From Stramenopiles sp. TOSAG23-6 (Eukaryota): DNA of 35,009 nt. Below, piece after piece: positions 1 through 29,700 of the stretch. The notes under the pieces were generated by a model, which saw nothing but the letters and a program-made list of their open reading frames with translations, did not search any database and was not told where the DNA came from. Each line of letters begins with the position of its first letter. Position 1 is the first letter of the stretch. Position numbers and translations under genes: made by a program. Location: the NCBI GenBank assembly GCA_900128565.1, contig LT635947.1, positions 1 through 35,009 on the forward strand, read 5' to 3'.

Positions 1-55
1 TAAATTCACAGAGAAAATATCAATTTTAGAAATGCAATAAATAATTTTCTGAAAG

Positions 56-970
56 TCATACCGTCGACAATAACCCAAAGACACCCAATAATAATATTGG
101 TGTAGCTGTTGATGACGTTGAAGGCAAACCTCGGAGACCACCCCAGCTCATAAAGATATTACAATTATTTGTCTCACACGCAGCACAATAATGTTCTGCT
201 GGTTTTACTAAACTCAGATTCCTTTCCTTGAGATACATTTTCCATTCTTCTTCTTTTTGATGTGTGAGTGTTACTTTCTCAAAATTGTCCATTGTACCAT
301 TACAATCTGAAACACCATAATCACCAGGTTCACAACGCCCAAACATAATTTCATGTTGTTTTCCTTTAAAGTTGACAAAAGAGAACTCGGTGATACATTT
401 CTTGCCTTGGTCGCATTCTTTTTCATCATGTGGAGGCACACGAAACTCGCCACTTAAAGTTGAGAGCCATTCTTCGTTTGACGCGTCATCATTTATGTGT
501 AGAAAATGATTACACGTCAATTTATCCAATTGTAAATGTTTTAGATTTGATTTCAATAGTTGACGAATTTCTGTTGGAATTTCAACAGATATGCCGTTGT
601 TGTACAAGCTCAAATATCCAAGCTTCGTTAGTAGACCAATTTGCGTTGGTATTGAAACAGATAGATCGTTGTTATCCAAGTTCAAATGTTCAAGATTTGT
701 TAGTTGACCAATTTCAGTTGGTATTGTACCAGATAGTTTGTTAGTTGACAATTCTAACTTCTTCACAACAGTGCGTTCATCGTCACAACTTACACCAAAC
801 CAATCGCAAACATGTTCCGTTTCCGTCTCCCAATTATTATTATTTTCCCAATTGACTCCACCAGTTGCCTCATAGAACGCTTCTAAAGCTTTCCTTTGTT
901 CTTCAAGTACTGCTCTACCTGTAGTACAATAAGTAATAAATACAATCAACGGTACAAATAATCTCGTCAT
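56..970 (-). CDS. Secreted leucine-rich-repeat protein (LRRNT_2 cap plus plant-type LRRs) with a Cys-rich C-terminal domain and probable GPI-anchor signal, ~304 aa
   Basis: ATG at 970 begins a hydrophobic signal peptide (MTRLFVPLIVFITYCTTGRA). It is followed by the cap ALEAFYEATGGVNW...CDWFGVSC and repeats of LxLxxNxLSGxIPTEIGQLTxL. The protein ends with CAACETNNCN, a Ser/Thr spacer and a hydrophobic tail. No intron needed. Confidence 0.85.
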   Translation of the reverse strand: MTRLFVPLIVFITYCTTGRAVLEEQRKALEAFYEATGGVNWENNNNWETETEHVCDWFGVSCDDERTVVKKLELSTNKLSGTIPTEIGQLTNLEHLNLDNNDLSVSIPTQIGLLTKLGYLSLYNNGISVEIPTEIRQLLKSNLKHLQLDKLTCNHFLHINDDASNEEWLSTLSGEFRVPPHDEKECDQGKKCITEFSFVNFKGKQHEIMFGRCEPGDYGVSDCNGTMDNFEKVTLTHQKEEEWKMYLKERNLSLVKPAEHYCAACETNNCNIFMSWGGLRGLPSTSSTATPILLLGVFGLLSTV

Positions 971-1145
971 TGTATTGTAAAAATGGTAGTTGCGTTTCGA
1001 AGGGAACAAATAAATAATAAACAAGAAAAGAGGACTAACGTCACTCAAAGGGTATCACGAACTGTGTTAACTTAACTTAATTTGCTACAACACGCGACAG
1101 GACGCGGCAGCTGCATAAATTAAAATCGAAAGTACGTTATTTTAC

Positions 1146-1175
1146 CCGGGTCCGGGTCCGAGGTCCGAGTCCGGG
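1146..1175. repeat. Short GC-rich (GTCCGR)-type tandem repeat in the divergent intergenic region
   Basis: ccgggtccgggtccgaggtccgagtccggg lies in otherwise AT-rich DNA between two divergently transcribed genes. Confidence 0.6.
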
Positions 1176-1382
1176 TTTATAAAATTTTATTTTTCTTGTT
1201 TTCAAACTTGCGCTCCTGTCCAACAAAACACACCACACTACCACATCACACACTAAATTTTGTTTGTAGAGTTTCTCCTTTCACACAATTTACGTCAAAT
1301 CAAAGATGTCATTCAACTGACATTGCAAACATGCAGATTCAGTTATACTAATTGGTAAAAAGCACATTTAAAAAAAGTGATT

Positions 1383-2949
1383 ATGGTCGTGCCATCATCA
1401 ACCTTAAAAAGATGTAGGTATCAACTCTACTTTAAGTTATCAATAATGGTGTGCGTAGCACTTGGTCTGAGTAATACCCCAGTTGAATCACATAGTGAAA
1501 ATTGCATAGAGACAGAAACATGCAGTACGCACATTCCTTTAAATTTGTTTATTCGGGAACCTTATGCTGAAGACCAAATTGCTGGTCCAGAAGTAGATAT
1601 ACACATTGATGTTCCTTCTAATTTTACAGTTGGCCCTATTGATGGCTTTATTTGTGTCCAACTAGATAAACAAAAAGAAATATGCGCTGAAAATCTTCCA
1701 TCAAACTCCTCAACTCTGAAAGCAAAATTGACTGATGTATCTGTTGGTCGGCACACTATATCAGCGTGGATATCAAAGGGTGCGTCAAACATAAAAATTA
1801 GTCAACATACAGTATCATTTGACACATTAGCTGTGACGAAGCCTTGGTGGGGTCCGTACAGATATAGAACAGAAAATACAACAAAAAGCACGGAACCTCA
1901 AAGCAGAATAAAACACAACATTGAACCTGAAATGACTTGCTCACGTGATGCAGTACACGCTGCGGCAGATCTTGAACAAATTCCGCATTTTCTTGGCCCT
2001 TCACCATCTCGAAAAGTTGCAGAATCTAAAAAAGCGCTTGTCGCATTGTTTGCTGGAAAGAACAATTTTCGTAAAGCTGACGAAAAAATCCGACAATTTG
2101 GTCTAGAAGCCTTCAGTTTTATATTGTTTCTATATGATTTTGCTGAATTAGATATCAAAACATTCCCTTGGCTATCAAAGATCCCAGTGGTTTTGGTTTC
2201 CGGACAAATGAAATGGTTTTATCTAAAACGATTTTTATCTCCAAAAATAGTTTGTCATTACAAGTATATCATAATTGTCGATGACGACTGTGATATGACA
2301 GAACTTGATTTGAAAGGGTTTGTAGATGATATGATGAAATACCAAATTCACATTGGACAACCATCTCACTCGCAAAACTCACATCAACCAATGTATGCTT
2401 TCATGATGAATTTCATTTTTTTTTTCATACCAAATTCCGTACCTAACAATTTTTTTATGTGACATATTTTTTCACCAATATGTACCCATTTCTAATTCAA
2501 AATCCTCAATTGTTGAAAGAAAATGTGGCTGGTATATGGGTAAACTTCATCGAATCTGGGCCACTTCTTGCCTTTTCTACTGAAGCATGTATGTTTTATT
2601 TTTGTTCAAATTCGATTTTTTTTCATACGAAATTTTGTACTTAACAATTTTTTTTGAAATATTTTTCCAAAACACATGGGAATGTTTTTGGCCATTGATG
2701 CAACCTGATTTAGTTTCTGGTTATGGTTATGATTTAATTTGGGTTCCTGCGTGTGCAAAACGTCGAGCGGCTGTAATGCAACAACATTCTATTGTTCATG
2801 TCAATACAGGTAGTGCTTCAAGTGTAAGAGCTAATTGGGTTCCCCGGGCTATCGGTGAAGCCTTTACACTATTTAAAAGGCTTGCCCCTTTCAGTATTTA
2901 TCCAATTGATCCAAAACCATTAGGTAAATTCTACAGTATTTCTAAATAA
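1383..2949 (+). CDS. DUF707-family (putative glycosyltransferase-like) protein; exons 1383-2392, 2482-2588, 2678-2949; ~462 aa
   Basis: KWFYLKRFLSPKIVCHYKYIIIVDDD, IGQP and the spliced NFIESGPLLAFSTEA|WECFWPLMQPDLVSGYGYD match recalled DUF707 motifs (KWWFAKRFLHPDIV..Y.YIF.WDED; FVE.MAPVFSR.AWRC.W..IQNDLVHGWGLD). Three ORF-track ORFs join in frame after two introns are removed. The start could instead be ATG 1446. Confidence 0.8.
2393..2481 (+). other. Non-canonical GT-AT intron 1 (89 nt), family member
   Basis: GTATGCTTT...CCGTACCTAAC...TTCACCAATAT. Removal gives ...HQPM-YPFL in frame. An ATGTA direct repeat makes the exact register slidable. Confidence 0.8.
2589..2677 (+). other. Non-canonical GT-AT intron 2 (89 nt), family member
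   Basis: GTATGTTTT...TTGTACTTAAC...TTCCAAAACACAT. Contains no AG. Removal restores the DUF707 motif EA-W-EC. Confidence 0.88.
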
Positions 2950-2958
2950 ATAATATGC

Positions 2959-3028
2959 TGACATCAAAGAAACTTTTATTAGAAATTGAATGACATCAAA
3001 GAAACTTTAACTTTTATTAGAAATTGAA
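2959..3028. repeat. Tandem duplication (32 nt + 38 nt copies) overlapping the stop codon of the minus-strand orphan gene
   Basis: tgacatcaaagaaacttttattagaaattgaa at 2959-2990 is repeated at 2991-3028 with a 6-nt insertion. Confidence 0.85.
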
Positions 3029-4540
3029 TACCTGTTAAGTTCTCCTCGTATATCATTCACAAGATGAAGAGGTAGGTTATATCTACTTGGTGAAGATGAA
3101 TTCATGTATTGAAGTTCTTTTGTAATCTGATTGAACATTGTAATTGGAGTATTATACCGTTTCGCATCAATAGATAATATTTTTCTAACATATTTGCTAT
3201 GAGTAGGATTCTCGGAAACCCTTGCGTTGTAATTATCTATACTTTTTTTGTATTTTTGTTTTTCAAATAAATTATTTGTTGAATAATTTTCTACAATAAA
3301 TTGATCTGCTATATATTTATTAAGTTCTCCTCGTATATCATTCACAAGATGAAGAGGTAGGTTATATCTACTTGGTGAAGATGAATTCATGAATTGAAGT
3401 TCTTTTGTAATCTGACGAAACATTGAAATTGGTGGGATACTGCCTTTAAACTCTAATCCCCTTTTTTTAGACTTTTCTACCAAATCAGAGGATACAGTAG
3501 ATTGATCTGTACTTGCGTAATTTGTTTTGGTCTCTATATATTGTGATAATTCATCGTCCGATTCATATATATTGTGAAAAATATTTGAAATTTGAAATTC
3601 GTTAGGTACAGAATTTGGTACAAAAAGAAAATTGAAATTATGATGAAAATGTACATTCATTATTAGATGATGAATGATAACTTGGTGGTCCATCATCATC
3701 ACTATCAATACTATAGTTTTCATCTAAATGGTGGACCATTTCTGGAGTTGTTTGAATAATTTTATCTTGTGTGGTCTCTCTACTATTCTCCTCTTCTTTT
3801 TTATATTTTGCCCGTTCAAGCTCACTATTTATTTTATCAATTCGATTTTCTATTTCCTCGCGAAGTCTTTTGTTATAAAATACAAGACACTTTTTATCAT
3901 CCTGGTATTTTATTCTAGCTTCTTTTTTAATAGACTCGCATACTGAACTGCCAAGCTCTTGTTCTGCTAAAGTTTGCCAATTTGATATCGCTGACTCAAA
4001 AATTTCAGTCATATTGGCTAGCTCAGTCGCATAAGAAGTATTTCTGTTTTTTATTGCTGTTTTGAGACTGGATAAAAGATGCCTGTGTTTGCTCATTGAT
4101 TTGCATAGTTCTTTATATGATAGTGTGTTAATTCTATTATTTGCTTCTAAATTGTCAACGCATTGAACGAGTCTGAGCAAACGTTCAGATATGAAAGGAC
4201 CAAGAGAGCTTTCATTTCGAAGCCAAGTCTTCAAATTTGTGCCAGATGCGAATGGTTCAATTCTATAACGAATTCTTTTTTGGTCGTAAAACTCGCTAGA
4301 ATGAATATCGCCTGGCTCAATTGCATGTAGTAATGCATTGATCTCGCTTTGGTCATTTATAAATTCCTGCTCAAACTTTGACCTTGCCGTCATTTTTGAA
4401 ACATTTTGAAAAAAACGTATATTCTCACATGAAAAATTTTTTGACGCTCCAAATAATTCCTGAGTAGCTTCACGACCCTTTCGATATACTGAAAGTGCTT
4501 TTGCTATGGTTTCGTTGCATTTGCTTTGAGTGGGAAACAT
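3007..4540 (-). CDS. Hypothetical protein, ~481 aa; exons 4540-3655 and 3566-3007; helical N-terminal half and a duplicated 40-aa C-terminal motif
   Basis: Two long ORFs (300 and 238 aa) join in frame (SNNE-Y-ESDD) once a family intron is removed. No homology recognised. Confidence 0.7.
3028..3432 (-). repeat. Two near-identical ~115-120 nt coding repeats 285 nt apart (about 3028-3147 and 3313-3432)
   Basis: Both encode PI(S/T)MF(R/N)QITKELQ(F/Y)MNSSSPSRYNLPLHLVNDIRGELN(K/R)Y with nearly identical DNA. Confidence 0.9.
3567..3654 (-). other. Non-canonical GT-AT intron 3 (88 nt), family member
   Basis: Minus strand GTACATTTTCATC...CTGTACCTAAC...TTCACAATATAT. An alternative in-frame AT end lies 6 nt further on. 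Confidence 0.75.
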
Positions 4541-4801
4541 ATTGAGGAAACTCGTTTAGGTTTCGTACTAACTGAAGCAAGCAACTTTTGAAATCACTGG
4601 ATCAACAAGTTTTGTTATATGAGTGACATGGCGACCTACCTGTGCCATCGCCATCGGCATCGATCGGAGTTTTTCATCAGCCGAAACCCACTTGAGAACC
4701 CCCTAACTACTAACCCCACCATCAACTTAGAGAGTATCAGGTAATAAAGTCAATAAAGTGTATTTGTTCCCAACGCCCCTCCAATCTTTATAATATTAGA
4801 T

Positions 4802-5574
4802 ATGGCATGGCGATGTTCAGGAGTGAGTAATGGGGAGTTGATCAAGAATTTAGTCGGAGCTTCCATAATACATACTGATCGAGTAATTCAAACAATGCTT
4901 GTCACTGACCGTCGTTTCTTTACTTCTTCCGATAGACCATACGACGACTCCCCACAAGAAATAGGATTTAACGCTACTATATCTGCTCCTCATATGCATG
5001 GATATGCTTTAGAATGGTTAGTGTCACATTTGAAGCCTGGAATGAAGTCGTTAGATGTTGGGTGTGGCTCTGGATACCTCACAGCTTGTATGGGCCAACT
5101 TTGTGGAAATTGTTATGGAATAGACCATATAAATCAATTAGTAGAATTAGCACGCTCAAATATATCTTCTTATAATCGTGATTTTTTAGACTCCGGCAAA
5201 GTAACCCTTCAGCAGACTGATGGTTTTAATGGTCTACCAGAAGAGGCTCCATTTGATGCAATTCACGTCGGAGCTGCTGCGCCTTCAATTCCTGTTGCTC
5301 TCGTCGATCAGTTGAAGTGTGGAGGTTTGTACGAAAAATTAGAAGAATTCGACCCTGACAGTTCTATTTTTTTGCACTACATTATGTACCTAACGAAATG
5401 TAAACTTGAAATAATTCTTCACAGCACATAATGATCATACCCGTTGGTCCAGTTAATGGTCATCAAGAAATATTAGCTGTGTCTAAGGACAAAGACGGTC
5501 ACGTGAGTACAAAATCTCTTATGGGGGTTAGGTTTATTCCTTTAACTAGTGTAGAAACGCAGATTAAAGGATAA
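4802..5574 (+). CDS. PCMT1: Protein-L-isoaspartate(D-aspartate) O-methyltransferase; exons 4802-5328 and 5430-5574; 223 aa
   Basis: MAWRCSG..N.EL, ATISAPHMH, LDVGCGSGYLTAC, APFDAIHVGAAA, then after splicing QLKCGG-L-MIIPVGP...LMGVRFIPLT. These are the characteristic PIMT motifs. Confidence 0.95.
5329..5429 (+). other. Non-canonical GT-AT intron 4 (101 nt), divergent family member
   Basis: GTACGAAAA...ATGTACCTAAC...TTCACAGCACAT. Removal in this phase restores GGLMIIPVG. The CAG at 5422-5424 gives a frameshift with either nearby GT (5325 or 5329). Confidence 0.88.
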
Positions 5575-5637
5575 TAAAATCTATAATGGGGGTTAGGTGT
5601 ATTCCTTTAACTAGTGTAGAAATTAGTAAAGGATTAT
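5511..5637 (+). repeat. Tandem duplication of the last ~65 nt of the PCMT coding sequence (5511-5575 and 5576-5637)
   Basis: aaaatct.t.atgggggttagg.ttattcctttaactagtgtagaaa-like sequence appears twice in succession. The second copy lies after the stop codon. Confidence 0.9.
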
Positions 5638-5734
5638 AAAATATTTTTTATTTTTCTTTCAAGTTTTTACTTCAGAATTTTACTTTATTTTTTTTTGTTT
5701 TTTTTACCAAATTTTGTAATTATAATAAAAACAA

Positions 5735-8700
5735 TTAAAAAAACATATGATCTTGTAAGCCTGTAGTGTCTGGTTCACTCGATGAATAATATTCTTCTTT
5801 TGCTTTTTCATCCATTCCACTCCAGACAGTCTTATCAACTTTTTCTTTCGTATCTTCTGTTATTTTTTCTAATTTTAAATCATTTACAACATTATCATCT
5901 AATATTTCGTCGGGGGGTGGTCCAGCGTCAATTGACTTCTTTGTCTCTTCTATAATACCTTTATCCTTTGCATTTGACTCGGAAGTATCAAGGTTTGATC
6001 CGCGATTTTTTCTTTGTCTCGATCTCCTACGACGAGATTTTGATTTGGTACTGTCCCCTGCATTATTAGTAGAAGAGCGAGACTTTCTGCGCCTAAATTT
6101 TCTACCAGATCTTGAGGAAATCCCAGACTTGCGGCGAGAAATACTACCTCCGGCTTGATCAGTTGATTTTGATGCATTTTCTAGATTGGTACTACCCTCA
6201 GCCTTATTGCTAGAAGAACGATGTTTTCTGCGTCGAGAGCGCCGAGACTTGCGACTAGAAATATCACCCCCTGCTTGATCAGTTGGTTTTGATATATCTT
6301 CCCCTGCCTTGTTACTAGAAGAACGAGACTTTCTGCGCCTATATTTGCGCCTTCTATCTCCTTTGCCAGAGCTAGAGGATCTTTTGGACCTTTTTTTGGT
6401 TGTGTCGTTCACTCGAGGATCGTCTACTACAGGGACAACTTTCCTTAAAGCTTTGCGTTTTGCCAGTGTTTCTTTACGTTTTATGGCACCTGCTGATATC
6501 TCAGCCATTGCTGCTTCGCTTACGGTGCTAGCTTTACTTATCATCTTACTAAAACGATTACGTTTTTTTCCTGCATCCTCCTCCTTTTTCTTCTTTGTCT
6601 TTGATTGAAGCATTTCTTGTGCCCGAATCAAAACAACTCTAATCCAAGGTAACCTTTTTGATAAAACGAGTCCGCACCAAATCAACAGGAAGCAATTTCC
6701 ACCAATGAGAAATAAACCTAATTGCGTCTGTTCATTTTTTCTTCTGAATGCATTTGCACTTATCAAGAGATTTGAGTAAAAACTACAGAATATTGCAAAA
6801 AGGAGAATAAGCTGAAGATGAAAGTCTACTAAGTGTCTAAATGGGTCTACTAGAGCACACAGAACAAAGAACATCACAGATATGACAACTGCAACAGCAT
6901 TACGTGTAATCCCACCTGGAAGGGCGGCAAGCATACCAGTCAACATTGCCTTTCGAATTAACTCCACAAATTCATACCACCACACTTCATGTCTATAACT
7001 AATGAATATTGATCCATACGTTTTTGTAATTCGGTAGTGAAGGATTCTCAAATCTTTGTTGTACAGAAGTACTTCGTGCATTTCATTTCCCATGGCTTCT
7101 TCTGCTATAAGCCACACTCGATTGGGCCATAAAATACAAAATCCTATCACTGGCACTCCAATAACATACACAATAATAGCGCTGATTGCCACGATTGACA
7201 ATATTCTATATTGACTATCGTCACAACTGACAGCAAGATCCGCAACAAGGTAATTACTTCCATTTACCTCAAAACAATTAAATACACGAAAACATCTCAC
7301 AGAAAAGGATGGATATATGCAAAACATCACTAATATAAGAAGTCTCTTTGCATTCATTGTTGCGCTTGCTTTTGTGAATTTTACTGTATTTCCAGATAAG
7401 TTCTTTAGACCGTGCGCTGTTTTGAGCGCCAGTAGAATAACGAAAAATATCAGTGGCATTACCATCATGTATGCATAAAATTTTGTCGCAAAATCGGATG
7501 AAAAATCACATGGACTTACATATGCTGCAAACCGCATTATATCAAAATTGATTACATGGAAGGATTCAATAAAAGCAGTATAGTTTTCTGGGTATTCTTC
7601 ACCAGAAGCATATTGCATTTGGGATAAAACTTGGGTATAACTCAAAACTAATTTTACCGTTGCGCCCAATTCTGCCCAATATTGCCCTAATAATCCATGC
7701 TTGTCGTCCACACTGTGTAATCGTTTTCTCTTTAAAATTTCTTCCTTGGTCAAAACAGATTTTTTCTGTTCCTCGTGCAATGCTCTAATGAGTGTTAGTC
7801 GATCTTTACGCGAACCCATACTTTTCCGTGCTAATGTATGTCGTAGTCGTGATTCCTTTGCTAATTGTGCTGCTTTGCGCTTCATTCTCATTTCTTCTAG
7901 TTTTGCTTGGTAACTTTCAGTGTGCATAGTTTGTGATGTCCATATAATATTTGGAGTTTCAATATCATTTGTATTGATTCCTTTAGTCATTGAACTAATA
8001 CTTTTTATAGAAACAGAGCGCAATGCAGCTTTTCTAATTTTGTTACGAGTTGCTTCCAACTTTTCAAGGTAACCATCAGCATAGTAACCTTTGTCCGCTT
8101 TCGAAACCATCACACAAATTGATACAAAATAGGAAAAGAAACCAAGCAAAATACAGAGAATAATCATACCTTTTGTATTGCCTGTACTCTCTTGGTTTTC
8201 GTTTTGGCATTTTGTACAATGTTTACCATCAGACTGCAGTGCCCAACCTTGCATACATAATGCACAAAGAATTCCCATATGCCCTTCACGACAATTCTGC
8301 CAGTTAGATGTCGAATTTGCCCTAATAGGCCCGGCTTCACAGTTGTCGGGTGTTAAACATTCACGTAGAGTACAATCGCGATATGCTTTCTGGGATAATG
8401 GATCAGATGCACATTTACAAGAAGAACACGGGTCGTCATTGCAATCATCTGTAATTTCTTTTGGGCAAAACCAGTCTGGATGTTGTACTAACAATTCTGG
8501 GTCTTGCCAGTAACCAACAACTCGTTCATTCACAGAATTCGTTTCACTGCAGCTACCATTAATATAAGGATTTCCATTACATGGTACAATGTGGATACGT
8601 CGATTTACTGCATTAGTTTGTAAAGCTAGACCAAATTTGTCACAACGCGCACCCGGTGGACAAGGTTGGCATTTTTGAGCCCATGTATCCTTTCCAACAA

Positions 8701-11700
8701 GCGCTTCAATAGGTAATGTTAATGCGGTTACGGTATTATTTGATTCTCGACAATTGTATTTTTCCTGGTCTATGCGAAGGCCGTGTGTAGCGCCATCAGG
8801 TCTATTACCATTACAATCATCCGCATATTCAAAGTATTTTGCGTTGAAATATTCATCAGTATACAAAGCTTGAAACTTAGTTGTCGATGGACATTCATAA
8901 GCGCTCGCTTTTGACCCACCAGGGTCGTTTTTCTGGGCAAGAGCAGCAGCTGTACAATCTTTACTCCAAGAACCTTGCCAATACTCTATACTGCCTCCAA
9001 GATGAGCGTAGTACGATGCAGGACATTCGCATCGGCTCCGGTCACCTCCAATTTGTTCCCCAGTCACAAGCTTGACTGAGTTCCAAACGGGGCACTCTAA
9101 AGCTTGGAATTGACCAGCAGCACAAAATTCAATACCTTTGCATTTTACTTTACTAGCAGATGTCATACAATAATAGCCAGCAGGACAGATACTTGGATTA
9201 CGCCAGCCAGCGGTACTATCTTCGAAGTCTGTACGCTTGCCACAGTAAGCACCTGGCTCAGTACATTCCATAACAGTTTTTGAATTCGGACAATAAGAAC
9301 CTTCTGGGCACAAAACCGGTTTTCCTGTCCCTGGAATACAACGATATGCTTCTCCGTGATATGTCTCGCCAGTTGCAATAATTCTGTTTGATGGAGACCG
9401 CATATGCGGAGACCAAGTACCCACTATTTTGTTTGTTTTCACAACTACTTTTGAATTATTTTCATCATCATTATTTGCATCATCATTACTTGCATCATCA
9501 CTACCTGCATCATCACTACCCGCATCATCATTTGACTCTATGCCATTTTCGCACTGACTCTGTGTTGTCCGGGCTTGATACCAAATACCAGCGTGCTTAT
9601 ATTTTCCAATAGGTAAATCTGCCTCGGTCCAAAGTAGAAGCTCGCAATCAATAACATTACGCGGAGAAGATATCCCTCGAACATTCCAAATACCTGAAAT
9701 ACTGCAATCTTTTATCTCGCGACCATGAATTTCACGCATTGCAGAATCATAGCATTTCTCATTTTTCCAAGTACCACCAATGGAACAAGTCGTTTCATCT
9801 CGACTACGATGGATGAATGTATAATTTCCGTGTCGCTCATCCTCCACGGCACAAAAACTTTCTCGAGTTAAAATAGTCATATGATCATTTGCATCAACAC
9901 ATACATCGATACCAACATGAATTGCCGGGCCAATATTTGAGCCAATCATACATCCATGAAAAGGAAAGTCACATGAGTACTTAAACTTGCCCTGTTCACA
10001 ATAGAAACCTTCTGGGCATAATACGGGCATTGAAGTACCTTCAGGGCAATACCAAGATGGAGGCTGAATCGGATGATCCTCTAAAACAAGATTTTTATCT
10101 TTGACTTGGTCTGCTGACGCATTTGGATCTAATACACAAGGTTTTTTGAACTCACCTTCTTCACAATAAAATCCCGCAGGGCATACTTCTGTTTTCGCCG
10201 CATTTTCACAAAAGTATCCTGCTGGACACTTTATAGGTGTAATCGTCTTTTCTGGACAAAACCAAGACACGGTTTCATTTTCAAGTTTAGTTTTTGTTTT
10301 TTTATTTGCCTCTTCATTATATATACAACTTTCTTTTACGTTTGAAGATTCACAAAAAAAACCCGCTGGACATTTCACTTGTTCAAACGAACCTGCGGGG
10401 CAATAAAATCCATTGTTTTCGCAACTTCTCACTTCCCTTGAGTTCTTACATCTGTTCCCAGCCTTGCACACATGTATTTTGGAAAAATATTTCAAAAAAA
10501 ATCTAAAAAAAATGTTAGGTACAAAATTTCGTATGAAAAAAAATCAAAATTGAAAAAAAAATAAAACATACATCTGGTGCACCTGAACCGGTCGGACAAT
10601 ATCTAGCAAATGCATCGACAGACCATATTCCGATTTCTCCATCTGGTGAAGACTCGCAACTCTCCGGAGTGGGTCTATCAATTGTCAAATCGACACCTTC
10701 TACAAGACATCTTCCAAGTTTGGGTTGAAGATTTTCAGATAGGAAAATATTCCTTTTTCTTTCACCAATCATAATATACTCTGCATCTTCAATCTCAAGA
10801 CATGCTCGTCTATCAACGTCTGAAGATAATATAGTACCATCAGACTGTTGACAGACTCCATAAAAATGATTGTCGTAGGGAAAGTCACAAGAGTATTTAT
10901 ACTTTCCTTCTTTACAGTAATATCCCTCAGGACATCTATTTACTCTCATTTTTTCTTTCGTCCTGTATTGCCCATGATGCCATGCACATTCATAATCCCC
11001 CCTGAATTTAGGATTCCATTTTGCACCAATTTCTTTACACAAAGCTTTGTCTGTAACATCACGAATTACACCTTGGCGGTTTATACATGTGCCAGTGTCT
11101 TTAACGTGCCAATTGCCACCAGCAGATGTACAGGAATATTGATCTGTTTTCTCTTTCATTAATGATTGTGCATCCGATGCCACACAGACATCTATATTTG
11201 CGATATCTTCGCCATCAATGATACAATATTCGAATTCTTCATATAATGAAATATCACCTGTAGCAGGAGGACAAAACCATGCAATAGCATTTGAATTTTC
11301 AAGTAAATTACTGTCCATCTGACCCGTAACTGGATCCACTTTAAAAACACAACTTTTCGGAAATGCCCCATCAACACAATAAAATCCACTTGGACAAAGC
11401 ACTTTTGAGTGTGCGCCAGGGCATACATGTGACTCTGGACAAGTTTTAGGAAATACTGTGCCTTCAGGGCAGTAATACTGCTTATCTTCTGCGATGTTTT
11501 CTTGATCTACTTGAGAATCCCAAATACATATTTTTTTTTCCGATGCATTTGAACAATAATACCCAGCAGGGCATATTTTAGGACTATATGAACCTTCTTC
11601 GCAGTAATTAGCATGTCCATCACCCCCACAGGATCTCAGTACACTAGATTTCGGACAGTAAGAGCCCTTTGGGCATATTTTGGGTACCAACGATCCTTCT

Positions 11701-14700
11701 GGGCAGTACGGCGCTTTTGGCTCTGCCGTCCAGGTTCCGACACCCGCTGGATTTTTTGGATCTTCGCAAAGCATTGGTGTACCCCTTACATTAGTAACAT
11801 CTGTTCCATTAGCTAATTTACATCTACCAAGTCTAGTATTGGGATCGCTATCCATTTCATATTCCCAAACTCCACCAAACGCAACGCATGTTGACCAATT
11901 AGAAGCAATTGCACCTCGACACGCGCCATGAATATAAGGAAAATCGCAACTAAGCTTGACGTTTCCTTCTTTGCAGTAAAACCCTCCAGGGCAAATGGAC
12001 GGTGTAATTGTGCCTTCGCCACAGTAATGTTCTTTCCATGTACACGATTGATTTTTTTTACACTCTACATCAGATGTAATACTCGTACACGCCGAATTTC
12101 CTTCACAATGAACAAGATTCATATCAATATCATCACTGTTGTACTTACACGTTGCCTTATGCTTGTTTCTGGCACAATAAAATCCAATAGGACAAGGAAG
12201 TTTTACTTTTGCATCTTTACAATAAAATCCTTCTTCACATGATGTAGGATAAGACGAATTAGATGGACAATACCAACTTTCTGATGGGGAATCAATTAAA
12301 TTGTCTTCAATGTCTGGATTCCACACACAAGATTTCTTTAAAGATGCTAGTTCACAATAGTAACCTGCTTCACAATTGAGTGCTCTTCTTGAACCCGCAG
12401 GACAGTATAGTCCAATACCCGAATCGCATTGCCGTCTCTCATGAGATGACCGACAGAAATAACCCGCAGGACAGAGTGACATACTTTTTGATCCTTTTTT
12501 GCAATAGTATGCATCCATTTCAACACCAGTATTAGCAGCAGGATACCAAACACCAGAGGGTCCATCGCGAATGCGGCTATATGATATAACCCCTACTCTT
12601 TCTTTTAATGGACAACTAGACTCTGACATTTGTGTCCGCAAATTACATGGGTGTTCACCTTCAGCAGAGAACTTCAACTGGCGATCAAACCCAACACATT
12701 TTATATCTTTATCGCATTCTGACTGACAAAATTGCACTGTGCCATTGATGGTTTCAGACTTACATGTTGACATATTTAGAATGGTGTGTCCAAAATTATC
12801 CATACTCCTGTACGTATTATTTACCCATGTACCGCGGGCACCAACACATCCTTCTTTGCCGCTACCTTTTGAATGCCAGTAATTATTTTCACCAACACAC
12901 AATTTTTTATTTAATGAATTAGTGGAAGAAACATGGTCTGAAAATGTTACGCATGTATTAAGATCCGTAATATCTTCATCACCAATCATACATTTTCCTA
13001 CACCCCAAACACACTGCATTTCAGTCGTGCGTGACGATATTATTTCTAATTTCGATGCACTCAAACAAAATTCCGGATCACATGAAATTTTCTCAGCCCC
13101 ATCTTTACAATAATATCCCGCCGGACATTCATCAGGTGTAGAATTCCCTCCAGGACAAAAGGAAGCATCGTCTTTGCATGCATTTTGATTTCCGTTGCCC
13201 TCTCCGCTGGAGCTGCTGTAATGGCATAAATTTTGTTTTTGTATGTTAATTTCAGATTCATCGATAATGTCAGAGTCCCATTCACAACTTCTCTTAGAAA
13301 CTGAGTCTAAGCAGTAGTAACCTCTTGGACATGGCTCATTCAAAATGGACCCTTCAGGACAGTATTCGCCCGGTTGGCATTGCTCTTTGATTGTAGAATG
13401 TGAACAATACATTCCTGCTGGACAAGGCAACGGTAATTTCGTACCACTTGGGCAGAAAAATGCAATTTCTGACCCGTCTGATTTCCTTTTGATACTCCAC
13501 ACAAACCTTTGTATGTCATCTCCTTCGTTTTCTTCTTCGTTTTCTTCTTCGTTTTCTGCGTCATTTGCTGATTCACATGCAGTCTTTGACGGGTACGTAT
13601 CTGTAACATCAACTAGCGTACCACTAGATACTTCACGTGTGCATTTTCCTATTGGTGAATTTGGGTGTATCATTTCTTCCCATATCGCGTTCACTGCATT
13701 ACTGCTAGATTCGCTAAACGCAATGGCCTTACATCCCTCTTCATCACTAGCTTTTTCATGCCATTTACCCTTTCTAGCTTCACATGTTGCCTTATCATTG
13801 CTGTCGGTCAAAATACTTAAACGTTTAACTGCACTGGTTGTACCATCTGCATCCTCAACTTGTTCTGTTATCTCAATGATGCATGCATTAAGCATGGAAA
13901 TATTTATTTCGCCAATCATGCATGCGTGATGATACGGATAATCACATGGATATTTAATATTGTCGTTGCAATAAAACCCGGGAGGACAAAGTTTAGGCTC
14001 ACTTAGGCCAGGGTGATTTTTTTCGATTACAGATTGGTCCACACGACAGTAAAATGCTGGAAGAATTTTTGATTGACTAGAATCATCATTATTTTTCCAC
14101 TCTAGATTCGGATCTTTATCGTCAGGGTCATATGTGCAACTCTTTGGGGCAATATTTTCTTCGCAATAATATCCAGAAGGACATGTCTTTTTAATCTTTG
14201 CTAATATGCACTGAAATCCTGCAGGGCATTTTATTGGACTTTCAGTTCCTTCTGGGCAATACCATTTGAGTTCCTGGGGCGCGATTTCGAGATCTGGGTT
14301 TTCGAGATTTTTATCTGGATTAGCATCGTCCCAAATGCAGGAATTTGAAGAACCAGATGTTAAACAATAACTACCCTCACTACACAAACTTTCTTCCCTC
14401 GAACCACTTGGGCAATATTTAGCTCTATTCGCAACACTTATGCAAGGTTTTTTTTCAGATGGAGTTGGACAGTAATGTTCTGCTGGGCAATATTCGCTTT
14501 TTTGAGAATTAGCAGGGCAATATAAAGCCTTTTCTGTATCATTACTACATGCAATCTGTAATTTTCCTTCTTGGCAATAGTGTCCAATTTCACATTGTTG
14601 AGGAGCACTGCTTCCCTCCTTACAGAACCAGGCATTCAGACCTACACGATCCTCATCTGGTCCCTTCAGCAATATATCGTCATCTGACTCATTATAAATA

Positions 14701-23700: not shown

Positions 23701-26700
23701 GCTTTACCTTGTTGATCGATACCACCTCCAATATAACCTGCTAAACAGGAGCAATGAGATTTATTTTTCGCTAGAGTATACCCGTCGCTTGTTTGAGAAC
23801 ACACGCCGCCAATTCCACACGGTTCATCGGCACATTCATTCACATCAACACATATTTTCTGTACATATCTGAATCTCGTATCAAGTTTAGTGATACAAGC
23901 ATCTGATGAAGTATAAGCACAATCTTCCTTGAGTTCAAAACCAGGTTGACAATCTCTACATTGAAGAAGTGTAGCGCTACTATCACACGTATTGTGAAAA
24001 ATATTTAAAAAAAAAATCGTTAAGATACAATATTTCGATCGGAAAATAAATAAATCTGAAATTCATGATGAAAACGTACACGTCCCCGCGGAATTACATG
24101 CTTCGCCCCCCGAAGCGTCGCATTTACTCATAGTGCCACATACACATCCATCACCCCCGTCCTCACTTAAAGAACAATACTCAGAACCCCAGTATCCAAG
24201 TTTCATGTCTGTCCGAAATTCACACATATCCTTTTTTCTACACTCAGTTTCAGGGCCTGTTTTGTTTGACCAAAACCCAGTAACCGAGTCCACAAATCCA
24301 TAGTTTGCAATACACTCGGCACAAGAGTATTCAGATACAGCTGTCCTGTCGCCATTGAGATTTTTACATGAGTCTATTTCGGATTCCACTGCTTTGCATC
24401 CTTCTAATTGTCTATATGTGTCATGTTCCAGGGGGTCTAATAACTCTTGAATGTCAAGACATGAGGTTCCGACAAAACCATTCAAACAAGTTTTACAATT
24501 TGTAACCGGGTCAAAACCCTTATCACATCTACACTTTGCGTGTACATTGCGCTTGCGATAAATACTAAATCCATCCTCAGGTAATTTGTCAATGAGTTGA
24601 TCACATGTTGTGTTACATGAACAATGAGTTTCACTACTAGAGTAGTTCATATAAAAGAAGTCATCACACAACTCGATACACTCGTTCAATGTTTTTGAAT
24701 TATGATTCTCTTCATTATCAGCAACACACGAATAATCTTCCTTCCAAAATTCAAATGTACTGTCTGATGGCACAGGATTCCCACATGTACCGTGAGAAGA
24801 ACAATCATAATCACTTTCACATAAATCTCCATCTAAGGTTTCACAAAAAACACCAGAATATCCTTTAGGGCACACGCATTGTAACTGTGTTCTTGTATAT
24901 GTATCTGCATTATGATTACTCGACTCTGTAAATGAATCTGGAAGATATCCCTTCTCTCTCAAAGAACAGCGTACTGGCATTTCATAAACGACAAAAGTCG
25001 AAACATCAGCAGCACCTTGATCATTTGATGAGAGCCTAGCGCCACAATATAATGAATCTATAAATGAATTAGTATCAGTAGTCCATTTTCGAGTCGTCCA
25101 GTTGCTTCCATTAGCTGTACATTGTGATTCCTCTGTATACGAGGCATTGTCACACGAATCAACGCACTCTACCTCTGTATTAACATCATTAGGTGTACAA
25201 TATCCATATGTAGTCCAGAATCGAGTTGTCCATATTCCTCCACCCTCTTTACATTCTTTAGAATCTGTATACGAGTCATTGTCACACGAATTAACACAAG
25301 CTACCTCGCTATTTACATCATTAGGTGTACAATAGCCATTTTCTGTAGCTGTATATTTGCATGGTATAAGTTCACCTGTGCATTCATCTATTTTAGGTGT
25401 ATCATCAAGTGGGAATACAACTATAGACTGGTCATCACAACTTTCATCATTGCACCGAAAGCCTACATAGGAATAATTAATTGCTTTCTCTCTTATGATA
25501 CGTTTAAGTGAATACGTGTTCGACACTGTGAAGTAATTACCGCTTTGCTTCATGCAACCTAAATATGTCATAGTTCCGACCCATTTAGAAAGGTTGTCAC
25601 GCTGATTCCATCCTGATTTCTCCATAAAAACAGTATCGCATTTTGACTTTATTGAGTTTGGTTTTGAAATGTCAAGGCACATGCTCATACAATCTGACCT
25701 GCTCATTAAAGACGTATCATACTTTCCTAAATCATCTACTTCATGAAAGCCAGCATGCAACCCACCATCAACAAGTGGAGAACGATATAAATTTGAAACA
25801 TCGGTCTGGATATTGAACTTCAGTGCAGATGACCCAGGAAAACGTTTTGTGTAAGTAGTAAAAGGAGGGTATTTCTTAGAAAGCAATTTTACTTTGTATA
25901 CAGACCATAATCGCGGACGAGAATTCGTTGCATTAGAATTACCCCATTGCTTCTTCGTAACTGACTCCAAGAGAGGTGGCATATCTGTTGGATACTTATT
26001 ACACTGGGTATACGATATATCAGTAGTGATATTTTTTCCAAAAATAACCTTTGAATTTTGGCTAAAGCAGTCGTCGGCGGTTTCACATGAAAATGCAATG
26101 TATTCTATTTTTTTTGTTATAGCGTGTTGAATTGATGATGCAAAAATTCGAGACACATGTGGGGTTATGGTTATGCAGTAGCGCCAGCCGCCTTTGCCAA
26201 CATTATTCACGTTGCCCTCGTTCCATATGGGTACGCCCGCCGTTCCAGCTTTGGTCGAGGAGCAGCCGTGCAACCAAAAATCAGCATGCACCCCTGTCAC
26301 GGCGTTATCGCCATTGCCCACATTGTAACTGAGGGTCGGGAATTCTGCGGCGCACTCAGCCTTGGTCAGTGCACGAGTTCCACTTGGGCACGCCGCCCCT
26401 TTCGTCTCGTGTTCCGTTACTGCCCCTTCCGTCTCTTGTTCCGTTACTGCAACGGCATCAGGGAGTCCGCCAAATGCAGAAGCCGTAGTATAACCATCTT
26501 GCTTTATTACACGTGAACCAAATTTTGGCCAACATTCGCATATTTTATTTGCATTATGAAATGTAAAATAGAAACCAGCTTCCCCCAAATTGACACATTC
26601 CCTTCGACAAGAAGCGGCATCAGCTACTACTGTTTCAACTCTTGTTTCCAAAACAAATGGAATGCTCGGAATATCACTGTCTTCATTGTACACTCGAGTT

Positions 26701-29700
26701 GCTTCTCGACTGTGATTATAAACATAATTATCATTTGGAGGGCGTTGAAGTTCGTAGATCCGAAATAGGTCGTTTGTAGCTTCACTTATAATACACTCGG
26801 AAGTCCAAATACAATTATTTGAACCATCGGTATCATAAAAATATGAAATAAAATTGCATGATAATTCACTCACACATATATCCTTACAATTTTCCAAACT
26901 TGAAGCATTTGTCTGACCATTTGAAATACTATTTGAATCATCATATGCGCATACCCCAACACACGAATTTGGCTTGCAAAGCATTTTCCACTCATTTTGG
27001 ATCAGTGGGGCTTCTTGTATTCCATTAATATGAGACGCATCAACCAGTGGGTAGTATTTTATGTATTCCTTGTTCTCTTCACACGTGGTGTCGTCCCAAT
27101 TTTTGAATAGACATTTACANTGACCATTTTTCATTTTAGATGGTGGCTTACGACCTGGAGTTGTGTCTCTGTTGATTATTACACCATCATCAGTTGACAT
27201 AGAAGATCGAATAAAGCGAATATCACTCATACTAGTTATCGAGAAATAAGTCCATTCCGCTTTTATATAATCATCGCAAAAATTCTTATTATCAGAATTA
27301 TAAGATTCTGTTTCGGATTTCCACAAAAAAATTTCTGCCCCGAACTTAACCTCAATTTTATTTTTCAAATCAGACATGCTCATTCCTTGAAGTATCTTAA
27401 CACCAGTACCTTCATTCCAGTATGATGGTCTGATTTCACCGAGTTCACCGGTGTTTGACGTAGCACACTTCATTTTCCAATAAACAGGTTCCAAATCATT
27501 GACAGTCACGTCACCGCCATCCCAAAACACTTCGAATCCCACAGCCTTTCGCTGATTATCCCAAGATTTAAAATCTGTTGGTGTTCGCCCAAGTATATTA
27601 CTAGTAGTTTGAATTTCACTAGTACATGAATTGTGAAAAAATATTTTACATTTGAAATTCGTTAGGTACAAAATTTTCTATGAAAAAACAAATCGAAATT
27701 CAATTTTGAAAACGTACACGATTTGTGACACCATTCAATAGCAGATGCTTCTTTTTCTACTAAAGGCCCAAATTGATTTCCGTCAGGTAGTATGCTCCCG
27801 CTTCCATCGAAAGTTTTAATGAAATCATTTTCATTTGAACTTGTCGAATCTGCACAAGAACCTAAAATACCAGCTGAGTAAGGCAAAGTTGTTACATCAC
27901 CATGAAGACAACCTTGGAATTTGACACTATTAACCAATTCGACGAATATATTAGTATCTTCATCATTGTTAGCAGAAGACATTTTGAACTTTCCTCCAAC
28001 GTGAACTTCAAAGGAAAAACTACCAACACCATTGCTCCATGCTGGTTGTCCGTCAAACACAGGAACTTCTTGATCTCCGTTTGTTGTAACACAGTTTGTA
28101 CAGGGGGGATTTGTCCAAAACCCCCTTCGTCGCGACCACGATCCCTCACAAGGATCAGGAGATATATGCCAATACCCTGAAGTTTTGTTTACTGGTTCGT
28201 AGTACAAAAATATGTATTGTGCTACATTTTGAAATTCAGGAGTATCGACCCATTGATTATATGTTGATTCAGGAATGCAGTTTCTTGATTTATCGAGATT
28301 ACACGTCCATTTAATTTTATGTTTGTATTGTGAAATACCATTGCAGAGTGGTACATATTCAGTAGAGTAACTCCCATTCAAAAAACCCCAAAGACTGGAA
28401 GTTGTTCCATAAACAAAAAGTTCAGTGTTAAAATCTGTTTCGTCCTCAATACAAGACCCACCGTTTTGACAAGGACTGCTATCACAAATTGAACTGAATG
28501 ATTGACACGACGTAGACGCTATTTCACTGGTATATTTCCCAGGAGAACAATGGAAACAGTCTGTTTGACCTGGATCAGGCTGATACATATGAATAGGACA
28601 ATGATGACAATCTTCTATGCTATTCTTCTTTACATAATCAGCATTTGTTGGAAAATAACGCCCCGAAGGACATTTGATACAAAAATTTTCTTCAAAAAGA
28701 TAGTGCCCAGGATAACACGTCGCACACTGTCTGGGACCACGTCTGTCTTCAATTGACTTGGGTTCACCAAATTCACAATCCGCTGGCCAGTTCCGACATT
28801 CTAATTTACCTTCTTGTTCTATTGTGAAAAACCTACCCTCAGATGGATAAACAGAAAAAAATTCACATTTTCCAGAATCCACCAAATTGCATTTGGCTTC
28901 TTGTGTACGCTCTGATACCCCATTACAACGACCTTCAGATTCATTCGTTGTGGAAAATATTTTAAAGTTTAAATTCGTTAGGTAAAAAACTTGATACAAA
29001 AAAAATGAAATTTAAATTACCGATGAAAATGTACGGTTGTAATGCTTTGAGTAATGGATGAAAGATCAGGGTAATCTTCTGAAGTGTCCACTGCTTTGCG
29101 AAGCCGATTTTTAATTGCATCATCTGGTTGATACATGCAAAAACCCTTCACTAGTTTTTGCATATATTCCCAATCTGAACATTTTGTACAAACACCCTCA
29201 TTTATGTGACCATAGGGACCGGGAGACTGAATCAGAAGATTTCTATTAGAATTTTTTTCACCTTCATCTTCATTGCAAGGCAATAATGACTGACACTTTT
29301 TACCTCGAGTCATATCATTGCCAACCCTTTTATAAGAACCCCTAGGACATGGGACACAATAATTTTGCGTTGCCCCTTTACCGGTTCCATGATTACAAGG
29401 TTTACAAGTTGATAGATCGACGTATTCTTCACCACAAATTTCTTTATAAATATCAAGGCTGTTATAACCATCTTCAGCACAAAATGTACATACATCATTT
29501 TCACGTCTTCCTCCATCAAAGACATCTGTTTTTTCCCCGCAATCAGTATCACATAATTTGCACTCATTTATGCTATTTGTGCGCTTGTCGTTATATTTAC
29601 CATTTGAACATTCTGAACATATAGGTGGGTCTGTACTTCCTTCGACGGAGCATGCATCCCCTGGCCATTCAAATCCTCGGGGACACACCTCATTACAATC

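Follow-up and report, generated by a model that had tools for sequence, protein, structure and literature searches.

Introners have been described from Micromonas, Aureococcus, Symbiodinium, Chrysochromulina, and other organisms (PMC9860276 and PMC12130899, available portions). In a survey published in 2025, introner families with inconsistent or unfamiliar splice sites were examined further, and those without transcript support for correct splicing were dropped (PMC12130899, available portion). In Amoebophrya, more than 60% of the introns are non-canonical and part of them are introner elements, according to the accessible part of PMC7789003. Appendicularians such as Fritillaria display AG-A(N) patterns, and their introns have escaped the GT/AG rule mainly at the 5' end (PMC7789003 and PMC13326754, accessible parts). 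The terminal AG is otherwise among the most constant signals of eukaryotic gene expression, and the exceptions known are uncommon intron classes (AT-AC) or a small number of unusual lineages. Here we report the analysis of a stretch of 35,009 nucleotides (nt) from Stramenopiles sp. TOSAG23-6 (contig LT635947.1 of assembly GCA_900128565.1, positions 1 to 35,009, called the window below), centered on an intron in the PCMT gene at 4802-5574. All introns recognized in the window lack a terminal AG, have a textbook 5' end and a branch-like box, and belong to one apparently mobile family, of which one copy is removed in environmental mRNA.

RESULTS

The window is eukaryotic, with a G+C content of 30-44% per kb, and contains a few compact genes and one giant gene. 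PCMT is encoded on the plus strand by two segments in different frames. Exon 1 (4802-5328) is open from its ATG to ...GGA GGT TT and matches positions 3-167 of the Pfam profile PF01135 with an E value of 1.8e-51. Exon 2 (5430-5574) consists of an A followed by ATG ATC ... GGA and the stop codon TAA at 5572-5574. Its frame (5431-5571, with stops at 5572-5577) is offset by +2 relative to that of exon 1, and its product (MIIPVGP...LMGVRFIPLT...) matches positions 169-209 of the same profile (E value of 2.5e-07). The whole PCMT domain, including the C-terminal segment, is matched across the two exons. When read without splicing, the open reading frame (ORF) runs from the ATG at 4802 through ...GGA GGT TTG TAC GAA... 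to a TAA at 5429-5431 and gives only 209 amino acids (aa). The closest relative in the protein collection, P0002, is 63% identical to exon 1 (110/175, residues 1-174) and 58% identical to exon 2 (26/45, residues 176-220) according to BLASTP. Because exon 1 ends at residue 174 of P0002 and exon 2 starts at residue 176, a single bridging codon is expected, corresponding to the removal of exactly 101 nt. When 5329-5429 was removed by a script, the product was a PCMT of 223 aa with the junction ...LKCGGLMIIPVGP.... The host gene is an ordinary eukaryotic PCMT, with nothing unusual besides the intron.

The PCMT intron occupies 5329-5429 on the plus strand (101 nt in the GT...AT register; removal of 5328-5428 yields an identical mRNA). 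Its 5' boundary reads ...TGT GGA GGT TT/GTACGA... at 5318-5334, and its 3' boundary reads ...TTCTTCACAG CACAT/A ATG ATC... at 5415-5436. The 5' end GTACGA (5329-5334) has an A at position +6 that is found in this copy only, the family pattern being GTAYRT/C. A TACCTAAC branch-point-like box lies at 5387-5394, with its last A 36 nt before the intron end. The element is closed by a conserved 3' box, TTCTTCACAGCACAT (5415-5429), which is aligned with the 3' ends of the nine other copies described below and whose last T is invariant. Within this box, a CAG is present at 5422-5424. The original prediction, made from the letters of the window, had placed the GT at 5329, the CAG at 5422-5424, and the end of ...CACAT at 5429, all of which are right by direct reading. 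It had also stated that the CAG produces a premature stop (TTC ACA TAA) when combined with the donor at 5329 and a frameshift with a donor at 5325, and both outcomes were reproduced by a script.

Seventeen splice variants made by a script were scored on a PCMT profile. The homologues, P0002-P0120, came from a query with exon 1 (the best 120 of 4435 matches listed), and the profile was built from 118 of these 119 proteins; P0003 was left out because it is a form of P0002 with a retained intron. The best score, 337.2 bits, was shared by all 101-nt removals in which the Gly-Gly pair stays intact (the GT-AT, TA-TA, TT-AC, and TTT..CA registers), followed by GT(5325)...GC(5425) with 333.8 bits and GG(5324)...CAG(5424), which gives ...LKCGHIM..., with 332.9 bits. 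All eight GT/GC-AG combinations that are in frame and free of stops, searched to about 45 nt from the boundaries, scored between 296.7 and 308.4 bits, and the penalty for an ordinary GT-AG solution was therefore about 29 bits or more. The lowest values were those of GT(5329)...CAG(5424) with its premature stop (278.3 bits), of the unspliced PCMT (277.7 bits), and of the frameshifted GT(5325)...CAG(5424) (276.1 bits). By comparison with the homologues, only an exact 101-nt removal would give a 223-aa enzyme that fits them. A functional PCMT needs this removal, and the CAG at 5422-5424 must therefore be bypassed in favor of an end at CAT, as had been proposed (337.2 bits versus at most 308.4 bits for GT/GC-AG). 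Homology, as judged from these sequences, cannot pick among the registers of the 101-nt removal. As for P0003, it is identical to P0002 as far as ...ALVAQ, after which the two differ and P0003 has a G+C-rich tail. This tail resembles a retained intron, located six codons upstream of the site where the window PCMT is interrupted, and the P0002 relative would thus have an intron nearby, at what looks like another site and from another family.

A family sequence of about 90-100 nt sits wherever the long ORFs of the window change frame. Using an nhmmer profile built from the ten copies themselves, the PCMT copy included, exactly 10 copies were found at an E value of <= 6e-10, the next match having an E value of 2.5. 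They are located in four genes: the giant gene has six (G1 to G6), a DUF707 gene has two, and PCMT and an unnamed gene have one each. All are in the sense orientation and inside ORFs, and every intron recognized in the 35-kb window is a member of this family. The copies are 88-101 nt long and show near-full-length similarity between introns of unrelated genes, with pairwise identities of 50-83%. The boundaries were set at the invariant GTA and the aligned last T. With these boundaries, all ten copies start with GTA and end with T; the last two bases are AT in nine copies and GT in one (G2), and none of the ten ends in AG in the register that restores the frame. The 5' hexamers are GTATGT/C, GTACGT, GTACAT, and GTACGA. 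A TACCTAAC-like box was found in 10/10 copies, with its A 33-36 nt from the end in nine of them and 43 nt from the end in G1. This box resembles the yeast UACUAAC branch box. When the six giant-gene copies were removed at the family boundaries, a single ORF of 8829 aa was obtained.

The PCMT copy matched the family model with an E value of 2.1e-15, the model including this copy. It is the most diverged member, with 57% identity to a leave-one-out consensus versus 68-78% in the other nine, and still has the GTA, the TACCTAAC box, and the 3' box. It is also the only copy with an AG within 30 nt of its end (0/9 in the others). Direct repeats of 1-6 nt were found across the family boundaries; most of them seem to reflect a junction consensus shared by both ends (...CAT/GT...) rather than copy-specific duplications. 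A comparison of the 4-mers at exon ends and intron ends gave 23/40 matches versus 19.5 expected (derangement mean; P = 0.046), so that target-site duplication is weakly indicated. No consistent inverted repeat was seen by eye in the family copies, and Rfam gave no match on the window. RNAalifold, applied to the ten copies with 8-nt flanks, predicted 0 consensus pairs, and the fold of the PCMT intron was no better than those of shuffled sequences (z score of -0.67; 45/200 shuffles equally stable). A structure-guided removal was rejected on these two results.

Removal of a family copy was examined in three polyadenylated (polyA) metatranscriptome runs of one study (X6, X7, and X8) and in a seawater DNA run of another study (X3), compared over positions 1-12000. 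All run data are assembled Logan contigs, which show presence and not proportions or strand; minor forms are dropped from them, and a spliced minority would escape detection. At copy G1 (10472-10571, minus strand), a joint from 10469 to 10570, with 100 nt skipped and a slack of 4 nt, was present in X6, X7, and X8, each time in a single long contig. The depths of these contigs were 24.1, 19.2, and 34.9, respectively. The joint was absent from the DNA run X3, in which contigs enter the G1 intron from both sides (5750-10496 and 10545-12000). Five registers are allowed for G1 by the RNA, namely AT-AC, TG-CA, GT-AT, TA-TG, and AT-GT, none of which ends in AG. This joint also means that none of the in-frame GT-AG alternatives, whose acceptors would lie at +9, +27, and +40, is what was assembled. 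The family thus does undergo removal without a terminal AG, as seen in copy G1 alone. Bins 1-400 and 801-1600 had zero depth in all three RNA runs and were covered in X3; DNA carry-over in the RNA runs is therefore unlikely.

Contigs that match the 3' end of G1 and continue into other flanks (loose ends at 10471) were found once in X6 and four times in X8, which suggests that many other family copies occur unspliced in polyA RNA. In X3, the bin with G1 reached a summed contig depth of 22898 versus 9.6 in the adjacent bin, and a family-copy bin in X8 reached 7224 versus 34.9; the bins of high depth include 10401-10800 and 2401-2800. Such a depth is no copy number, and the very high values in family-copy bins are a sign of highly repeated sequence.

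The register of removal is left undecided by the frame alone, because a joint shift of both ends keeps the frame. At register 0, the 5' ends are GT in all ten copies and the 3' ends are AT in nine and GT in one. At register +1, the 5' ends are TA in all ten copies, and the 3' ends are TG (6), TA (3), and TC (1). At register -2, the 5' ends are AT (5), GT (2), CC, GC, and TT, and the 3' ends are AC (6), AT (2), TC, and GA. A true AT-AC reading is possible in 3/10 copies and is excluded by the PCMT copy, G4, and G6; for PCMT, the register check agrees with what had been predicted. The PCMT copy has an ambiguity of 1 nt (registers -1 to 0), corresponding to GT-AT (5329-5429) or TG-CA (5328-5428). 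Of the GT-AT model originally proposed, what stands is that, on the aligned copies, GT-AT is the only register common to the family (GT in 10/10, AT in 9/10), yet it is unproven in any copy. Similarly, the junction GGT TTA ATG, which had been put forward as support for GT-AT, does fit this register and fits TG-CA equally well, since T5328 and T5429 are the same base. PCMT had further been regarded as the cleanest single test of the model. This does not hold, given its 1-nt ambiguity, its weak expression, and a GG-AG reading that is only 4.3 bits worse; the unambiguous copy is G6 (32212-32303, minus strand). With its boundaries ...GGC/GTACAT...AACAT/AAACG..., G6 has zero register ambiguity, and the gene around it is strongly expressed, with contig depths of 19-43 in the polyA runs; G6 would therefore test the model more cleanly than PCMT.

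P0121, the one public model of PCMT that was found (162 aa; source name GSMAST32.ASY1.ANO1.1019.1), maps to 4802-5571. Its sequence continues for 16 residues inside the intron before skipping to ...INGHQEIL..., and three conserved blocks, including the S-adenosylmethionine-binding LDVGCGSGYLTA, are missing from it. It corresponds to the GT(5361)...AG(5452) alternative, which scored 308.4 bits on the PCMT profile, and is what a gene builder restricted to GT-AG would yield. In a query with the exon between G4 and G3, the sole near-identical match was P0123, an unspliced ORF that extends 18 residues into intron G3. P0123, P0001, and P0122 are single-member clusters. In general, gene models made for the TOSAG23-6 genome under GT-AG rules are probably unreliable. 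When exon 1 was compared with metagenome contigs, the 80 loci kept were all at most 40% identical and evidently bacterial PCMT genes, with no locus of this organism or of a close relative among them.

The remaining copies are as follows. Two lie on the plus strand in the DUF707 gene, at 2393-2481 (registers -2 to +3) and 2589-2677 (registers -3 to +1). The DUF707 profile matched exon A over positions 14-154 and exon C over positions 211-257 (E value of 0.028), with no match for the 35-aa middle exon; these profile coordinates are too loose for fixing an intron boundary. The copy in the unnamed gene (3007-4555) spans 3567-3654 on the minus strand, its 3' boundary having been reset by frame. In the giant gene, all on the minus strand, G3 lies at 27626-27717; G4 (28943-29034) allows registers 0 to +1 and has no AT-AC reading; and G5 (32520-32614) allows registers -4 to 0, a GT-AG reading shifted by +4 being also possible. 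G2 (23987-24079) reads as GT...GT or GT...AC and is the sole copy without a GT-AT reading.

Several other features of the neighboring genes were observed. At the copy in the unnamed gene (3565-3662, minus strand), the hexamer ATGAAT is present both directly before and directly after the intron. Both hexamers survive GT-AT removal (...N E Y E S...), and one survives if an AT...AT removal takes out 6 nt more; both removals are in frame. In the protein encoded by the ORF downstream of this copy (3007-3723, minus strand), a segment of about 35 residues (...ITKELQ.MNSSSPSRYNLPLHLVNDIRGELN...) is repeated, occurring twice, and no Pfam match was found for the upstream part of the gene. At the other end of PCMT, a 47-nt direct repeat (5511-5557 and 5576-5622, plus strand; 94% identity, 65-nt spacing) duplicates the end of the coding sequence (...KSLMGVRFIPLTSVE...) in the 3' untranslated region, directly after the two stop codons. 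The giant gene covers 5735-32790 on the minus strand and continues past a run of N at 32828-32864; it encodes at least 8829 aa after removal of its six introns. The start of this ORF lies beyond the N run, and its one X is due to the N at 27120. The two N runs inside the gene are 1 base (27120) and 37 bases (32828-32864) long, and the latter probably marks a scaffold gap in the 5' region of the gene. The product is cysteine-rich, with Ephrin_rec_like repeats (PF07699; E values of 3.3e-12 and 1.1e-07) and no other Pfam match at 1e-5. Its tail is rich in Arg and Ser, and distantly related proteins of 1000-6000 aa exist.

DISCUSSION

At the family level, a non-AG and most likely GT-AT class of introns is supported by one RNA-proven copy and ten concordant copies. 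For PCMT itself, we consider it on balance probable that the intron is spliced as GT-AT or as the equivalent TG-CA. The segment 5329-5429 would be an old, diverged copy of a transposon-like intron family (introner) of about 90-100 nt, which sits in the sense orientation inside coding genes and would be removed from their mRNA. Each copy would bring its own signals, namely the invariant GTA at the 5' end, the TACCTAAC-like box some 35 nt before the 3' end, and, closing the element, a T-rich/CACAA box ending in ...RT. In the PCMT mRNA, exactly 101 nt would be removed and GGT TT joined to A ATG, the CAG five bases upstream being bypassed. The 3' cut may be placed by the 3' box of the element, which ends 17-18 nt after a conserved AAATA, or by the distance from the branch-like box. 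Given the G at +1, the yeast-like GTATGT/GTACGT, and the UACUAAC-like box, a spliceosomal mechanism would be the natural reading, and the TACCTAAC box may, by analogy with yeast, act as the branch site. Removal by the spliceosome, the GT-AT register, and the very splicing of the PCMT copy are our inferences.

The PCMT copy may be spliced inefficiently, weakened by the A at +6 of its 5' site and by the competing CAG, in a gene that would not be dead. As the most decayed member of the family, this copy is probably old. The frame of exon 2 is intact, and its conservation equals that of exon 1 (58% versus 63% identity to P0002). In the DNA run X3, a 1993-nt contig over 3774-5771 contains the PCMT intron with no listed difference in 5329-5429. 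Within the PCMT coding sequence, two differences between the window and the seawater population were found, 5317 G>A and 5475 A>G, both of which are synonymous third-position changes by codon reading (AAG/AAA and TTA/TTG). The decayed copy, the conserved exon 2, and the synonymous differences are together suggestive of a gene that is still functional.

Several observations weigh against splicing of PCMT as GT-AT. In the sampled RNA, the PCMT intron is mostly or wholly retained. It is present in record 11 of X6 (5108-5443, depth of 8.55) and in record 16 of X7 (5266-5590, depth of 11.9), X8 having no cover over 5201-5600, and no spliced PCMT joint was found among the 15 joints listed (of 39; 4653 further pieces unlisted). 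The original prediction had named an unspliced transcript as evidence against itself, and part of that is what we see, both RNA contigs over the site being unspliced. Nor was a spliced PCMT protein found among the matches listed. Among the best 120 of 4435 matches to exon 1, only the unspliced 209-aa ORF was found at 100% identity, the next match being at 63%, and queries with exon 2 gave only the mis-modeled P0121 among longer proteins and a bare 47-aa ORF among those of similar length. The choice of GT-AT rests on uniformity over ten copies, with the G1 RNA allowing five registers, and G2 cannot be GT-AT. GG(5324)...CAG(5424), which the earlier list of alternatives had overlooked, also removes 101 nt and scored only 4.3 bits below GT-AT. 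Purifying selection is supported by only two single-nucleotide polymorphisms. Finally, the exact restoration of the ORF is no proof of splicing, because any clean insertion gives it.

A rival explanation is that the PCMT copy is unspliced or no longer spliced, being a transposon-like insertion with intron-retaining transcripts and a truncated 209-aa product. We regard this as unlikely, although it accounts directly for the unspliced contigs in 2/2 runs covering the site and for the lack of a spliced product among the protein matches listed. It is also in line with the A at +6 (T in eight and C in one of the other nine copies), with a CAG 5 nt before the family end, and with the presence of other copies unspliced in polyA RNA (one X6 and four X8 contigs with ends at 10471). 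However, exon 2 has remained open, with a Pfam E value of 2.5e-07 and 58% identity against 63% in exon 1, while the intron copy is the most decayed of all; both polymorphisms of the coding sequence are synonymous; and a minor spliced form would be dropped from Logan contigs. Moreover, PCMT and the giant gene are convergent, with their stops about 160 nt apart, and the giant gene is far more abundant. The unspliced PCMT contigs could be antisense read-through from the giant gene, in which case they are uninformative either way.

Less likely still is that PCMT is spliced at other termini. These would be GG(5324)...CAG(5424), giving ...LKCGHIMIIPVGP..., TT(5327)...AC(5427), giving GGT ATA ATG, or TA(5330)...TA(5430), giving GGT TTG ATG. 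All three remove 101 nt in frame, and their scores (332.9 bits for GG-AG and 337.2 bits for TT-AC and TA-TA) compare with 337.2 bits for GT-AT. A TA start is available in all ten copies at register +1, and G*-AG donors are known in Oikopleura. On the other hand, GG-AG loses the second G of a GG pair kept in 7/7 relatives inspected and has no equivalent AG in the other nine copies (0/9 within 30 nt of the end), and registers +1 and -2 are less uniform than register 0, with its ten GT and nine AT. A non-spliceosomal removal guided by pairing between the two ends of the intron, of the kind suggested for the nonconventional introns of euglenids and the introner elements of Amoebophrya, is very improbable. 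It would agree with the non-canonical termini and with the 1-6-nt direct repeats overlapping the boundaries, but not with the lack of consensus pairs in the RNAalifold prediction or the z score of the PCMT fold, and the GTA, the GTATGT/GTACGT hexamers, and the TACCTAAC box look spliceosomal. An assembly or sequencing artifact in this single-cell-type assembly, such as a frame-shifting indel beside a normal GT-AG intron, is hardly credible. In spite of the N runs in the window (27120; 32828-32864) and the small size of the likely source runs, 5329-5429 recurs in the X3 DNA and in two RNA runs without any listed difference or indel, and the same architecture is found at ten places.

Beyond PCMT, it is quite conceivable, without our going so far as to call it probable, that the standard intron of this lineage is an introner of about 90-100 nt with spliceosomal GT...AT ends, for which AG is neither required nor preferred, even a well-placed CAG being passed over, and the 3' cut is set by the 3' box of the element or by its distance of about 35 nt from the branch box. 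If so, a lineage-wide change in the 3' splice-site rule would be carried by a mobile element, and the broken public gene models would be explained. If GT-AT is confirmed, the family would offer a natural system for how the second catalytic step picks its site without an AG, and introners would be able to spread a non-standard splice signal. Gene finders bound to GT-AG are expected to mis-model most TOSAG23-6 genes, and in genomes of this kind the number of genes and any reported gene losses may therefore be unsafe.

In a limited search of the open literature, supplements aside, we found no GT...AT or other non-AG introner family and no unusual splicing in marine stramenopile genomes. In their available text, supplements again aside, papers on single-cell stramenopile genomes are silent on unusual splice sites, with no occurrence of "splic" or "non-canonical" in PMC5778133 and none of "intron" in PMC8163842, and the note on the Cafeteria genome (PMC6972860) likewise contains nothing on them.

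Compared with U2-type GT-AG introns, the window family has the GT and the branch-like box (10/10) and fails at the terminal AG (0/10). U12-type introns have a 5' RTATCCTT, tolerate non-AG 3' ends, and carry a branch box ...TAAC about 10-20 nt from the 3' end. The window family is like them in its non-AG 3' ends and its conserved branch-like box. It is unlike them in that RTATCCTT is found in 0/10 copies, that the box lies 33-43 nt from the end, and that AT-AC is possible in 3/10 copies, the PCMT copy not being one of them. Departure from GT/AG is shared with appendicularians, where it is genome-wide and the spliceosome is retained, as far as the accessible parts of PMC7789003 and PMC13326754 go. 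There, the 5' end is changed and the introns do not form one repeat family, whereas the window family has kept the 5' GT and lacks the 3' AG. With introners, the window family shares short repeated elements in the sense orientation in unrelated genes, one or both splice signals carried by the element, and removal from mRNA, the last being seen for G1. Unlike the introners in the available portions of PMC9860276 and PMC12130899, which have GT/GC/GA...AG or AT...AC ends, no window copy ends in AG. Amoebophrya appears to be the nearest precedent, as judged from the accessible part of PMC7789003: it is likewise a marine protist with repeated intron elements, direct repeats at their boundaries (3-5 nt there), and failing gene finders. 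Amoebophrya introns have no dominant dinucleotide and carry inverted repeats of 8-20 nt that form a hairpin, whereas the window family has an invariant GTA, a branch-like box, a uniform ...RT end, and no predicted hairpin.

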